From assembly GCA_964016885.1 (NCBI GenBank), contig OZ024741.1:28086001-28150000 (forward strand): DNA of 64,000 bases, given 5' to 3'. The DNA comes from Eledone cirrhosa. Its lineage: Eukaryota. Within the stretch, counting starts at the first letter, position 1. Each line of letters starts with the position of its first letter. Shown here in pieces: positions 27,909-33,110 of the stretch. Both the position numbers and the translations under genes were made by a program. The notes below the pieces were generated by a model that was not told where the DNA came from, ran no database searches, and was given only the letters and a program-made list of their open reading frames with translations.

Positions 27909-27990
27909 GGAGTTTTCCTCATCAGTTGTCTACTGGGGTCTAGGATATTTCTACGCTTTAAAGACAAGATATCGCTTCACCCCAGAGCGT
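27909..27990 (-). ncRNA. Non-circularly permuted hammerhead-like RNA, copy 1, inside a TA-flanked element (~27835-28170)
   Basis: Minus strand: ACGCT CTGGGG tgaagc GATAT C TTGTCT ttaa AGCGT a GAA ATATC ctaga CCCCAG t AGACAA CTGATGA ggaaaactcc. Confidence 0.75.
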
Positions 27991-28189
27991 CAGTAACTGG
28001 ATAAGTTATTATTGGGAAAACGAAGGAAGGAGGGAAGGACAGCAAGAGGCAAGAAAAGAGAAACAGTAACAAAACGAATAAACCCCCACAAACCGAGCAA
28101 TGTGCGAGCAACTATAGGTAGGAAATCCAACACCACTCGCTAATAGAACTTAAGCCGCAGTTGTAAGTGACATATATATATATATATAT

Positions 28190-28467
28190 AAAAGAAACTT
28201 TCGCTCTACATGGCTGAATACAATAAATGTAATCTGAGTTTTTCGAATATTAATAATAACATTCGATTCGTTTGCAATTACGCAAACAAGCCTCAATTTT
28301 ATAGCCATGTCACTAGAGTGAACACTTCATTCTTGCTCGTTCGCATGCCAACACAAGAGCAAGAATGAAGTGTTCATTCTACTGACATGGCTATAAAATT
28401 GAAGCTTGTTTGCATAATTGCAAACGAATCGAACGTTATTATTAATATTCGAAAAACTCAGATTACT
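28190..28467. repeat. TA-flanked inverted repeat, arms ~28229-28339 and ~28357-28466
   Basis: Direct complementarity; the left arm carries an extra ~40-bp extension. Confidence 0.85.
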
Positions 28468-28520
28468 TATATATATATTTATATATATAAATATATATAT
28501 ATATATATATATATATATAT

Positions 28521-28655
28521 ACCCGTCCGTCCCTTCATTCTTTCTTCTGATGAAGGACTAGAGTCCGAAACGTTAGGACCCTCTTCCTGCTATTTCAAGC
28601 GTTTACCTAATATATTCCTTCCATATACTGTACCGATTGTGTTGTTATTTTTATT
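28521..28655 (+). mobile_element. Solo 3' terminus of the 35037-37312 Penelope, with a hammerhead at 28543-28578
   Basis: TCTT-CTGATGA-A-GGAC-TAGA-GTCC-GAA-ACGT-T-AGGA. Matches the reverse complement of 35037-35180. Confidence 0.8.
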
Positions 28656-29094
28656 TACCTTTTACACACACACACGCGCGTGCACACACACACACACACA
28701 CACACACACACACACACACACACACACACACACACACACACACACACACACACACACACACACACACACACACACACACACACACATAGCCCTAATATCC
28801 ATAGACTCAACAAGAACAATATAAAATTAAGTTTCACTAAACTTTGATTTTTCCTTAAATACCGAACACCCCAGTATAGCATTTGGCAGTTTATGTGGCT
28901 TAACAACCAGAATAACTTTATTTTTGTTTCATCCCATTTCAGCTTTAGTAGAACTGTAATATGGAGGTCATTTGAATGAGCAAGATAGACTCATTGATCA
29001 ATTATTCAGTTATATGACCCCACGTAGCAGAAGATGATATTACACATTCCTAAAAGTAGTAACTTTGTTTTGAAACAGCGAACATTTTTGAAAT

Positions 29095-29233
29095 AGAAAT
29101 AGTAGCTTTCGCCGTATTTTTGACTAAAGCAATTTTAGCCCGATAGTGGGGTTTAGAGCCCCATAAGAAATGGAAAAAACCCCTATCAGGCTAAAGTTTC
29201 TTTAGTAAAAAATACGGCGAAAGCTTCTATTTC
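29095..29233. repeat. MITE-like inverted repeat
   Basis: AGAAATAGTAGCTTTCGCCGTATTTTT ... AAAAATACGGCGAAAGCTTCTATTTCT. Confidence 0.7.
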
Positions 29234-29354
29234 TCTCTAAAAATTGTAGTTAGTCGTACTTGCTGTAATGTCGAGTTCTAGACATTTACTTTCCCCATTG
29301 TCCAGTCTGTTTAGATTTTCTTGTCTTCCGAGATTTACTTTCTGTTAGAAAACG

Positions 29355-29543
29355 ATTGGTGAATTGGCAGTATCGGTAGAGGGTCGGACGCCATGCTTTC
29401 CAGCATAGTTACGTCCCTTTACGATCTGAGTTCAAATCCCGCCGAGGTTGACTTTGCCTTTCATCCTTACGGGGTCGATAAAATAAAGCACCAGTAATGC
29501 ACTGGGTAATTGCTGGCCTTGTGCCTAAAGTAGAAACAATTAT
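29355..29543 (+). mobile_element. SINE copy
   Basis: Near-identical to 16777-16962. Confidence 0.9.
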
Positions 29544-30070
29544 GATTATATAAAAAATAAACGAAAACAAGATTTTCATATATATAAAAAAAAAAAAAAA
29601 TGCAAAATATATATTAAATTATATTAATTTAATTAAAATCTAATAAGAGAAGCACTTTGATTTCTTTCATTAGTTTCTTTTAATATATAACAAGAAAACG
29701 TTTTCATCTCAATGGTAAACACCAGTTTGTGTACAATACTTTTTTTATATAGAGACGTATTCATTAGAAAATCTTCGTTCAATGTCTCTTTGGACAAAGT
29801 AATGTTGAATGGATAAACACAGGTTTTAAAAACTCAATAGAAACAGAAATATTGATGTATATATATTTACAATCTATAGATAGTTACTGAATAGGTATAG
29901 TTTTGTATAGGACAACCCAATAGACATATGTTATGCCGAATGTAGAAGAAAAATGACTGAATGTCTGGTTCTAATACTGGACAGTGCTGCTTAAATGTAT
30001 TAAGTTCATACAAACCGTAAGTATTTCGGTTAGCAGAGTCAACTTGAAGACACTTCAGTTCATTTACTTA

Positions 30071-30265
30071 ATAATAATTGTTTCTACTTTTGGCACAAGG
30101 TCAGCAATTACCCAGTGCATTACTGGTACTTTATTTTATCGATCCCTTAAGGATGAAAGGCAAAGTTAACTTCGGCGGTATTTGAACTCAGAATGGCAAG
30201 GGCCGTAACTCTATGTGTCAAAGCATGGCGTCCGACCCTCTACCAATACTGCCAATCCACTGCCC
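30071..30265 (-). mobile_element. SINE copy
   Basis: Reverse complement of the main SINE family. Confidence 0.88.
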
Positions 30266-30869
30266 CCCCCCCATTTACTTAATAATAATGGGTGCCAGAC
30301 CTCCTGAAAATGTTAGAGCTGCTGGTAATTAAGTCAAGCCAACACGATATCAGATGGACGACTCTTTAGGTGCATCATACGCAAAATATATACAAGTGAT
30401 AGCTTCTTTTTTGATTCAGTTCCAAACGTCACGGAAGATGGATAAAAATCCTGAAACACTAATGTTTGGCATTTTCCCATGGCTACTACATGGTTACTGC
30501 TTTTGTTGGGCTTGAAATTCAAGCTAGAATCTAAATTACCGTACCAGTAGCAAAAGCCCAACTGATCTCTAAACGAATAAAAACAAAAACACAATGAATT
30601 ACAAAACACATGTCCTAGTAAATAACAAAACCCATAAAAAAGGCTGCGGAGCTCTTATAAATATTTACACTTGCTCTATTATTTGTATCCATTAAACTTA
30701 ACAGACTAGTTTAGTACAGTCAATTTATATCTCATAATTACTCTATATTACCATGAGTAATATATCTACCAGTATGCCACTACCTACTGTTACCTACTGT
30801 AATATTGTGCACGTAACCAATACCGGCTCGGAGTGTTTCACATCATAACTCTCCAATCACATTATTTTC

Positions 30870-31056
30870 AGTGGATTGGCAGTATCGGTAGAGGGTTGAA
30901 CGCCATGCTTTCTAGCATAGTTACGTCCCTTTACGGTCTGAGTTCAAATCCCGCCTAGGTTAACTTTGCCTTTCATCCTTACGGGGTCGATAAAATAAAG
31001 TACCAGTAATGCACTGGGTAATTGCTGGCCTTGTGCCTAAAGTAGAAACAATTATT
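30870..31056 (+). mobile_element. SINE copy
   Basis: Near-identical to 16777-16962. Confidence 0.9.
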
Positions 31057-31224
31057 TTCAAAATACTTGAAATTGAAGTAAGGTAGGCACACGTTTGGGT
31101 AAACTTTTAGTTTCAGACATATATTAACAGTAATATAAATTAGCCTTAAATTCATGACGATTTTGTAACTGTTATTTCTACGTAAAGTATGATATCGTGA
31201 CCCACAAATGTTGACCTGGTATCC

Positions 31225-31335
31225 ATGAAATATTAGGGTCGACTTTTACACAAGGTCTATGGAAAATTCCAGATTTTTTGGCCAAAAATAGAGGGTCGAC
31301 TTTTACATGGGATCGACTATTACTTGAGTATATAT
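31225..31335. mobile_element. Probable right end of a pogo/Tigger-like non-autonomous DNA transposon
   Basis: Repeated subterminal GGGTCGACTTTTACA motifs ending ...CGACTATTACTTGAGTATATA. Confidence 0.45.
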
Positions 31336-32228
31336 ATTTCATCCACACTCTAACAATGAACCATGCGTTGATGAACCGCGGGATTTTGAACTCTGAGCGC
31401 AGAAAGCCGAAATAAATACCGCAAGGCATCTCATCTACTTCTCTAACAATTTTGTGAGTCAGTGTAAGAGAGAGAGAGAGAGAGAGAGAGAGAGAGAGAG
31501 AGAGAGAGAGAGAGAGAGAGAGAGAGAGAGATGAAAGGCAAAGTTGACCTCGGTAAGATTTGAACAAGTTATTTTATCAAATGTGTTACACTCACCTTTT
31601 TACTAAATACTGTAATTCTAAGGCTCAGGTGAACAATTTGGCGACGTCCATCACTAACTCATCTTTTATTTAACCTTTTGTATTTTTCGAAATTAATAGA
31701 GTGTCCATCAGTATTGGTGCGGAATTGGTTGTGTATTAAGCTCAAATGTATAATCCTACATTAGCTTGTTTTCAGAATCAATAATCTTAAATTAATTATT
31801 TTAGAATATATAATCCGATAATAGCTTGTTTTCAGAAAACAAACAAGAAAAAAAAAAGTTTCTTTCCATCCTATTTCTTTAATAAATCTACACAGCAATC
31901 GCCCCGCACTCTTTCTATGCAAACATACACACACTTACACACGCACGAATTCCCTCTTTCTCTCTATCGTTCTCTCTCTCTACCCCACTCTCTCCATTTC
32001 TCCCCCCCCGCTCTCTTTCTCTCTCTACCTCACTCTCTCCCTTTCTCCCCTTTCTCCCCCCCCCCTCTCTCTCACTCTCACACAAACACATGCTCCCATT
32101 CTCCGAACACATACGCAGGGATTCCTTCTCTGCCTGTCTGTTTGTTTGTCTCTCTCTCTCTCTATATATATTTTACTCTTTATCCTCTCACTCTTTTTTC
32201 TTCCCCTCTCACCCTTTATATATATATA

Positions 32229-33110
32229 ACCACCATCCTAAACCTTGTTTTTAGTAACCACACAGCTCCTTTCGTTTCATATCATTTTGTATTTACCGTT
32301 GTGACCCTACCTGCTTTGGTCGATCTATGTTTCCTCCACACTTTCGCATCGATCCTCCCTTCTCCTCCTCACTCTCGTTTTTTCTCTCTCTCCCTCTCTC
32401 TCTCTATCCATCCGTTCGGTTTTGATTGTTGACATGTTTACACGTGCCGTGGTGGCCTCTCTGTCCGCAATCTTTGCGGCACGTTTTTACCACCGTCGTA
32501 AAAAAAACCCTTCTGGATTATCTCCCTTTCCCTTCTCCTCCTCACTTTTGGTTGCTCGTGTCTCTCTCTCTCACTTTCTCCTGTCTATGTGAGAGGCAGC
32601 ACGATTATACCAGCTCTGAGTCGTAGCTGACCACCAGGCTAAAGTCTCCCAGGCTGGCCACAACTTACTTTCCCTATTTTTCCACGGTTACTCTTTTGCA
32701 TGTTTCTTTCACCTGTGTCTTCCCACGATGGGACCTGTACACTTTTTTTTCTCCTATTCCTTTCCTATTTTCCCCCCTTTCCCTTCTCCCTTTCTTCCCC
32801 TCTCTTCATCCCCCCCCCTGTTCTTCCCCCTTTCCCTCTGTTTCCTTTTCTCTCTCCTTTTTTCTCCCCTTTTTTTTTCTCTCTTTCTCTCTCCTTTTCC
32901 ACCTGGCCTTTTGATTAATAAAAGGCCTCGGGCGCACCCGAACTACACCGACGTCCTGTAATTCAGCGCCGAAACATCGGATCGGGAAACATTTACAGCT
33001 GACGATGGAAACTCCTTTTTTCCTTTCTCCTCCTGTTCCGTCCTAGCCACCATCCTAAACCTTCTTTTTAGTAACCACACAGCTTCTTTCGTTTCATATC
33101 ATTTTGTATA
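32229..33110 (+). mobile_element. ~818-bp non-coding unit with ~62-bp terminal redundancy, carrying a permuted hammerhead
   Basis: CCACCATCCTAAACCTT..CATATCATTTTGTAT at ~32230 and ~33047; TA at both ends. Confidence 0.7.
32931..33015 (+). ncRNA. Non-circularly permuted hammerhead-like RNA, copy 2
   Basis: GGCGC a CCCGA actaca CCGACGT C CTGTAA ttca GCGCC GAA ACATCGG a TCGGG aaacat TTACAG CTGACGA tggaaactcc. Confidence 0.75.

Follow-up and report, generated by a model that had tools for sequence, protein, structure and literature searches.

A candidate hammerhead ribozyme with an interrupted, non-circular core order in (TA)n-inserting repeats of Eledone cirrhosa and in Naiad elements

Introduction

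Which ribozyme, if any, is encoded by two short, diverged motifs in the genome of Eledone cirrhosa, and what carries them? We analyzed a 64,000-nt stretch of this genome (assembly GCA_964016885.1, contig OZ024741.1, positions 28,086,001 to 28,150,000 of the forward strand; hereafter the window), which contains one motif copy on the minus strand (copy A) and one on the plus strand (copy B). Both carry the core words of a hammerhead ribozyme in the order cleavage site > GAAA > CUGANGA. Drawing on sequence, covariation and repeat anatomy, and with the three-dimensional fold and cleavage as predictions, we consider it probable, at roughly 0.77, that each motif is a hammerhead of the non-circular class (S > G > C) whose chain is open where A9 of CUGANGA would otherwise lead into the stem II 5' strand, and that such motifs lie 3'-terminally in Naiad Penelope-like elements and in non-autonomous retrozyme-like units.

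Hammerheads have been described as three blocks, S, G and C, which are assumed to be uninterruptible, and the non-circular types SGC and CSG were found to cleave in vitro (Eckert et al. 2023, PMC10085705; this and the other papers cited here are used for the parts available to us). The order site > GAAA > CUGANGA is that of type SGC, whose published descriptor permits a U insertion after CUGANGA, and CSG has so far been known from two metagenomic sequences. Cervera & de la Pena 2020 (PMC7229834) and Li et al. 2026 (10.64898/2026.07.22.740005) propose that non-LTR (long terminal repeat) retrozymes are circular RNAs and that Penelope-like elements mobilise them. Naiads, one clade of Penelope-like elements, prefer (TA)n targets and were reported without canonical hammerheads; some of their cores, recorded only as 'HHR_core/half_core', fit no descriptor and have the second half 35-50 nt away 'on either side' (Craig et al. 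2021, PMC8557442). The available parts of that paper propose no structure for the Naiad cores.

Results

Two copies of one motif in the window

A strand-by-strand re-reading of the window confirmed both motifs of a preliminary description of this DNA, together with the helices and the non-circular block order (S, G, C) that it had assigned. From 5' to 3', the strands follow the order P0, hairpin Ph, Pa, Pb, stem III, the predicted cut, stem I, a TTAA linker, Pa', GAAA, stem III', Pb', stem I', CUGANGA and P0'. Pa, the proposed equivalent of stem II, is completed by an upstream strand, and the multiply pseudoknotted fold put forward in that description is supported.

In copy B (plus strand), Pa (32931-35/32966-70), Pb (32937-41/32982-86), stem III (32948-54/32974-80) and stem I (32956-61/32993-98) were read from the sequence; Pb is the counterpart of the SGC helix in which stems I and II interact (PMC10085705, Fig. 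1 legend). Block S, which comprises the 5' strand of stem III, the GUC site and the 5' strand of stem I, spans 32948..32961, and the hammerhead consensus predicts cleavage after C32955 (C17). It is followed by the TTCA linker, the 3' strand of Pa, GAAA (32971-74) and the 3' strand of stem III (together 32962..32980), and then by the 3' strands of Pb and stem I, CTGACGA (32999-33005) and the 3' strand of P0 (together 32982..33011). P0 pairs 32896..32901 with the tail at 33006-33011, also in the minimum-free-energy (MFE) fold, and the 8-bp hairpin Ph lies at 32905..32927. The single stem III mismatch, C32952, was seen in this copy alone: T occupies the position in nearly all other family members examined and in the public contigs at ~99.9% of depth (two sequencing runs of one sample, the kind of run not being on record).

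Copy A (minus strand) has the same arrangement, with Pa at 27990-86/27957-53, Pb at 27985-80/27938-33 (their 5' strands together 27980..27990), stem III at 27973-69/27948-44 and stem I at 27967-62/27931-26, all read from the sequence. Its block S with the AUC site spans 27962..27973, and by the same consensus the cut would fall after C27968 (C17). The TTAA linker, the 3' strand of Pa, one unpaired A, GAAA (27951-48) and the 3' strand of stem III occupy 27944..27961; the 3' strands of Pb and stem I, CTGATGA (27925-19) and the 3' strand of P0 occupy 27912..27938. P0 is a 7-bp helix of 28015..28021 with the tail 27918-27912, and Ph (27992..28013) differs from its family by a 3-nt duplication and one mismatch.

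The preliminary description had drawn both motifs too short, since B begins at 32896 and A at 28021, and had overlooked the helices P0 and Ph. The conserved 'ggaaactcc' tail that it noted is present, but its role as the 3' strand of P0 had been missed; the ~90-nt constructs proposed there lack the 5' strand of P0, and ~115-125 nt would be required. An Rfam scan of the window, a comparison also proposed there, gave no hammerhead or other ribozyme family at E<=1.

One fold across at least six repeat families

Further families (C, D, E and H) surfaced from flanks and pattern matches in the source genome. One fold was found to be common to at least six families (A, B, C, D, E and H) and several subfamilies. 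The helices had been called "fully covarying" from two sequences, which was weak evidence; further homologs from these families now bear the claim out.

P0 emerged from the comparison of families, as the tail after CUGANGA paired with a strand ~45-60 nt upstream of the cut site, and Ph sits between P0 and Pa. P0 occurred in each of the six families compared and in the Naiads inspected by eye, and always starts 0-2 nt after A9. Its letters vary from GTTTTCC/GGAAAAC in family A and TTTCCA/TGGAAA in B to TGTCC/GGACA or TATCC/GGATA in C and H, and it reaches 10 bp in D (CAGCAGAAGG/CCTTCTGCTG).

Covariation was counted in a MAFFT alignment of 26 copies of A, C and H subfamilies, hand-chosen as good fits. 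Families B, D and E and the window copies were left out (MAFFT misaligned family B), one row is without the upstream part, and P0 is one column out of register in some rows. In this alignment, 90.0% of 910 cells were paired compared with 76.5% after shuffling and 29-51% in slid controls. Both sides changed in 23/35 pairs (5/6 in Pb), the covariation score was 0.458 versus 0.210, and 0/500 shuffles were as high on four of five measures. Covariation was found in all seven helices, including P0 and Ph, with the changes falling between subfamilies, and Pa and P0 covary at 4-10 bp. Many subfamilies add a single covarying 10.1-11.1 pair (UA 9, CG 5, AU 4, UG 3, other 5 in the 26 copies); in B, H and the Octopus Naiads, branch migration by 1-2 bp at the junction could yield the classical G10.1-C11.1 pair. 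Families B and D have letters in P0, Ph, Pa and Pb unrelated to those of the counted alignment. In a looser test for perfect 5-bp helices in 164/195 copies against upstream shuffles, Pa scored 0.59 versus 0.08 and Pb 0.60 versus 0.10.

The core letters, beyond CUGANGA and GAAA, which the underlying search required, also followed the hammerhead pattern. Of 164 distinct copies, 134 passed the stem I/III filter, and in 134/134 of these the site was U16.1, opposite A15.1, followed by C (84) or A (50) and never by G, with all four bases at N7. Exact CUGANGA, GAAA and UH with a free N7 and C or A at H17, kept across diverged families and phyla, would amount to a catalytic signature.

Chance controls and copy number

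Stems I and III flanked the core in 164/195 source-genome copies and in 0/14 metagenome pattern matches. A family-blind descriptor, which uses no family-specific letters, was run on 40 unselected 10-kb stretches plus the window (464 kb in total). Its core version gave three matches in the 400 kb of unselected genome and one in the window, where copy B escapes through its stem III mismatch, and 25 shuffles of this 464 kb gave one match in total; the full version (core, Pa and P0) gave none in the shuffles. Four overlapping partial patterns searched genome-wide gave 396, 427, 973 and 839 matches against 41, 5, 53 and 10 in reversed controls. As the matches lie far above the shuffled and reversed controls, the motif is not a product of chance.

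A loose scan found five copies at 3/40 unselected 10-kb stretches, a rate that suggests on the order of 10^4 copies in the genome, with a wide error. Repeat queries on the source genome (3.0 Gb) returned 807 first-look candidates for family B and 1753 for A, 40 of each being scored. Family B is young, with 96-97% identity among its top matches. Outside this genome, a pattern scan of JGI metagenomes gave 15 loci (14 scored), none with stems I and III, and a scan of IMG/VR gave no match; the pattern is family-biased, so neither result implies absence.

Relation to published hammerheads

All the conserved core nucleotides and stems I and III of the type I/II/III hammerheads in Rfam are found in the motif, whereas the circular order CUGANGA > GAAA > site of those types is not. 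It shares more with type SGC (HRIMA-1 and variants): the S, G, C order, multiple pseudoknots, a Pb-like helix joining stems I and II, a short linker joining stem I with the strand of stem II and, in some members, a U after CUGAnGA. The preliminary description left it to be checked whether the topology is new. The core order is known, as it was already published as SGC (PMC10085705); the chain break inside the block formed by CUGANGA and stem II is new relative to the available parts of that paper. In SGC the 5' strand of stem II directly follows CUGAnGA, but here it lies at the 5' end of the motif and the gap is closed by P0, with or without Ph. A comparison with published rearranged motifs, which that description had also called for, shows a shared block order and no match to the intact block C of SGC.

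With type CSG the motif shares the cyclic class and the run Pa-Pb-III-I-Pa'-GAAA-III'. CSG RNAs differ in keeping an unbroken block C at the 5' end, in having their chain ends between stem III and Pb, and in being without a P0/Ph branch. In the motif, the strand in the stem II 5' role precedes block S and is followed by Pb, just as in CSG were block C still attached. This placement suggested that the RNA belongs to the non-circular class in a circularly permuted form, its chain being open between A9 and stem II and closed by P0.

The motif might instead be a plain SGC hammerhead with a minimal stem II, formed by 1-2 bp between the tail and the strand before GAAA (in B, CUGACGA-U-GG with CC-GAAA, as in HRIMA-1), Pa and P0 being alternative or peripheral pairings of a mobile junction. 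Such pairing is available as 2 bp in B (55/59 copies), 1 bp in C (35/38), 1 bp in E (10/12) and up to 3 bp in H, the 10.1-11.1 pair covaries, and the published descriptor allows the U. This published-type stem II nevertheless measures 0-2 bp in most copies and 0 bp in 37/49 A copies and 11/14 D copies, while Pa and P0 covary over their longer helices. Our own re-implementation of the SGC descriptor, relaxed to CUGANGA and requiring the G and at least 2 bp of stem II, matched none of the source-genome loci holding 169 core matches. We consider this explanation unlikely.

A literature search with mostly open-access coverage and without preprint supplements turned up no account of this topology, and none of hammerhead permutation in Naiads. 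Non-circular hammerheads appeared only in Eckert et al. 2023, and Naiads with ribozymes only in Craig et al. 2021 and Li et al. 2026, apart from one fungal genome paper on an unrelated subject. No such topology occurs in the available parts of PMC3088659, PMC13725137, PMC10162972 and 10.64898/2026.09.16.752053; PMC13725137 mentions hammerhead variants with additional helices, there without detail. Two other assignments were tried and rejected. The GGAAAC tail does not serve as a relic GAAA of a type I core, as stem III for that core does not pair, and a fold like that of the hepatitis delta virus ribozyme differs in its nesting.

The carrier repeats

The motifs are carried by high-copy, pyrimidine-rich, (TA)n-inserting units of 500-820 nt. 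Tandem units measured 502-791 nt, contained 38-48% GC, had a ribozyme strand of 66-72% pyrimidine and shared no ORF (open reading frame); one double unit of 999 nt had a broken core. Copies are 5'-truncated, partial-tandem or inverted. A (TA)n run was found within 260 nt 3' of the motif in 55/68 B copies and 26/30 A copies, mostly 84-118 nt after CUGANGA; for family C this held in 5/63, a count dominated by one tandem array. These (TA)n-flanked dispersed repeats support the earlier proposal of carriage by TA-targeting mobile units. We also observed that a ~515-nt family C unit forms a tandem array of >100 kb (C1:81545000-81665000) with the permuted motif in each unit, a ribozyme satellite.

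Copy B lies in a (TA)n-flanked family B unit copy at 32227..33112 (+), which represents ~1.1 units of a ~817-nt, non-coding, ~70% pyrimidine repeat. It carries a terminal direct repeat (32227-32295/33044-33112), and in public contigs the joints of the B unit jump back 815-816 nt. Copy A lies in a family A copy at 27835..28171 (-), 5'-truncated relative to the ~579-nt family unit and located between two (TA)n runs. In A, B, C and H2, the insertions usually end 3' inside the AU-rich loop of a stem of 5-7 bp. In the window B unit, this conserved 6-bp stem (CACAGC/GCTGTG in the family) is at 32261..32303 (+), with T>C at 32299, and its 5' arm recurs at 33078-33083.

Copies extend through the cut site for hundreds of bases, suggesting that the template is circular or uncut. 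Among 17 distinct B copies whose 5' ends lie within 30 nt of the predicted cut, nine begin 1-5 nt 3' of it, eight upstream and none exactly there, a distribution confounded by TA microhomology.

Like non-LTR retrozymes (PMC7229834; 10.64898/2026.07.22.740005), the units are non-coding, tandem or dispersed and carry one ribozyme each. Unlike them, they have a non-circular core order, whereas retrozymes are defined by type I hammerheads; current surveys with type I descriptors would thus miss units of the window type.

We searched for an element that could mobilise the units. No permuted motif was found at 30 GIY-YIG loci and three long-ORF loci; in nearly all 30 GIY-YIG loci the domain is followed by a stop, that is, C-terminal. 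Three loci (L220, L221 and L222) have frames of 844-1096 aa with a Penelope-like reverse transcriptase (RT) and, at the C-terminus, GIY-YIG, two of them with microsatellite-derived starts, and no hammerhead core was found in their fetched flanks. The Octopus Naiad ribozyme pattern gave one match over the source genome, attributable to chance.

The same architecture in Naiad elements

We read Naiad consensi in File S5 of PMC8557442 around CUGANGA strings, at places 19-48 of 62 for ctgatga, 7-36 of 43 for ctgaaga, 3-17 of 23 for ctgacga and 3-17 of 25 for ctgagga. Because line breaks can hide matches, the counts are minima for the 54 consensi, and some names follow from file order. The full P0-Ph-Pa-Pb-III-I architecture was found in the 3' untranslated region (UTR) of at least nine of these (Obim, Ovul, Amil, Aacu, Anas, 3_Chem, 2_Movir, Plae and EuTe), with one Pa mismatch in Aacu. 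The Plae element, for example, has P0 AGAGG/CCTCT, an 8-bp Ph, Pa GGCCCC/GGGGCC, a 9-bp Pb, a GUA site and a TTA linker. At least two others carry a partial form, Esco with a Pa mismatch and Bfor with a stem I of only 2 bp. Hosts of Naiads with the architecture are cnidarians, an acanthocephalan, a crustacean and octopuses.

By eye, at least six further consensi, from nematodes and a spider, read as type CSG in complete form, their linker again resembling TAA: three are from Nbra, one is from another strongylid nematode, one is from Pristionchus, and one precedes Lpol (Smim by order).

The window units resemble Naiads in (TA)n targeting, in partial-tandem and inverted insertions and in this 3' UTR RNA architecture, and the Ph loop TTATTTTA of Octopus Naiads occurs in family C too. 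They differ from Naiads in being without an ORF.

Several other structures were noticed in the same file. CCCC-CUGACGA motifs occur several times in arthropod Naiads and once in 2_Skow; among the arthropod Naiads with CCCC-CUGANGA cores (parts 16-19), one has the order S-G-C and a local hairpin ahead of GAAA, which may be yet another arrangement. The 3' end of Naiad-1_Movir has the twister-like words GCUGAGUG ... UAACA ... CCGGUCACAAGCCCGG, with GAG before UAA, and is possibly a permuted twister. The CGi, Olur and 1_Pfla Naiads (bivalve and hemichordate) have in common a GC-rich 3' motif without CUGANGA, a candidate for a different ribozyme.

Discussion

These observations are best explained, in our view, by the interrupted non-circular hammerhead. 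In such a fold, Pa would replace stem II, and Pb and the TTAA linker would tie Pa to stem I, as in SGC; stacking of Pa as stem II is what the geometry of Pb and the linker leads us to expect. P0 and Ph would form a side branch at the 9/10.1 position, where the rest of the transcript enters and leaves. The ribozyme would most likely cut tandem transcripts into monomers, which would then be ligated into circles. A Penelope-like RT/endonuclease would nick (TA)n and start priming inside the AU-rich loop of the conserved stem, which lies ~100 nt 3' of CUGANGA. Copying on through the cut site would give 5'-truncated, partial-tandem and inverted copies. As judged from sequence, this is a real and new topological variant of a known ribozyme, with predicted cleavage and a specific link to a published gap.

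Several results weigh against this interpretation. The aligned copies are hand-picked and related, which inflates the covariation measures, and on the measure of further pair types 444/500 shuffles reached the observed value. In the 164/195 copies P0 exceeded shuffles only modestly in a wide window (0.81 versus 0.54). The junction varies: family E is without Ph, and positions 10.1/11.1 are G.A in the main family A and C.Y in D. Pseudoknot-free MFE folding gives P0 and Ph but mostly other core pairings. The Naiad pairings were read by eye rather than computed, and by eye the motif was not seen in the 3' stretches of 1_Chem, 2_Chem, 1_Movir, Omin, Ppla, CGi, Olur, Mcor, Adux, Tama and 1_Pfla.

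The link to Naiads within the source genome meets similar difficulties. A tblastn search of 14 Penelope-like ORF fragments against the flanks of 219 motif matches gave scattered matches in both orientations and no consistently linked upstream ORF, and the upstream stretches of 20 further copies had no shared ORF among the output examined. One pattern for the Naiad RT motif gave no match over the source genome (no protein search with a Naiad query was run), and the fetched loci contained no Naiad RT. Hydra- or Neptune-like elements are abundant there, and ORF fragments resembling Hydra-1_Obim, together with a SINE, would fit an octopod cephalopod as host. These searches recovered no Naiad ORF, despite the youth of family B, so the units of this genome may be mobilised by a different Penelope-like element that targets (TA).

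A different possibility is that cleavage proceeds as first drawn, with Pa running through CUGANGA, and that P0 and Ph are dispensable for catalysis and act as an on/off switch or a protein-binding site. Both lie outside the catalytic core, and family E does without Ph. The constant position of P0, 0-2 nt after A9, in every family and Naiad in which it was read, points to a structural role at the core and makes this possibility distinctly unlikely. Some natural hammerheads act as dimers, and since the units occur in tandem, the active form could be a dimer or trans complex in which an exchange of strands between tandem units or molecules produces a more conventional fold; every pairing lies within ~120 nt, the linkers are as in monomeric SGC and no palindromic loop is common to the families, so that we give this very little credence. 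Highly improbable, too, is a chance pattern or a structured non-catalytic element (an RT-binding or packaging signal) that inherited its hammerhead words: degenerate copies are numerous, and the motif is absent from some Naiads that amplify, but the predicted catalytic signature is kept across diverged families and phyla, and the shuffle and descriptor controls exclude chance.

Beyond the interrupted hammerhead itself, we lean slightly toward a broader proposal. The topology, which lies outside the six published block orders, would be the ancestral Naiad ribozyme across phyla, would together with CSG in nematode and spider Naiads show circular re-permutation of non-circular hammerheads inside one transposon clade, and would power ~10^4-copy retrozyme circles. 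If true, non-circular RNA permutations would go from a rarity of metatranscriptomes to a high-copy feature of animal genomes, and the three-block rule for counting possible hammerheads would be broken. It would also answer a published puzzle, the apparent lack in Naiads of the hammerhead known from other Penelope-like clades. RNA engineering would gain a new scaffold, a hammerhead whose two chain ends both leave at the 9/10.1 position.

Other features of the window

Hammerhead-like words in canonical order were also observed in the window. A separate repeat family has minimal CUGAUGA...GAAAC motifs at 28547 (+), 35139 (-) and 38956 (+), the second with GGAAC instead of GAAAC. CUGAAGA/CUGACGA-hairpin-CGAAAG motifs are located at 20393 (-), 20526, 40845 and 48389 (+), 39418 (-), 21485 (-) and 25247 (+), and represent canonical-order hammerhead-like cores in inverted repeat arms, such as 21704-25032 and 39220-41043.

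A 615-bp tandem repeat of another family, with no open frame, occupies 57637-59776; related pieces at 33113-33945 and 27673-27834 adjoin both ribozyme copies across TA runs. A 12-kb minisatellite with a 26-nt period spans 3970-16000. RT remnants were found at 987-2018 (+), 21765-23855 (-), 44330-45973 (-), 52320-53135 (-) and 61671-63198. The first three match Pfam RVT_1 (21765-23855 below the curated cut-off), and the last two resemble Hydra-type Penelope-like ORFs by eye.

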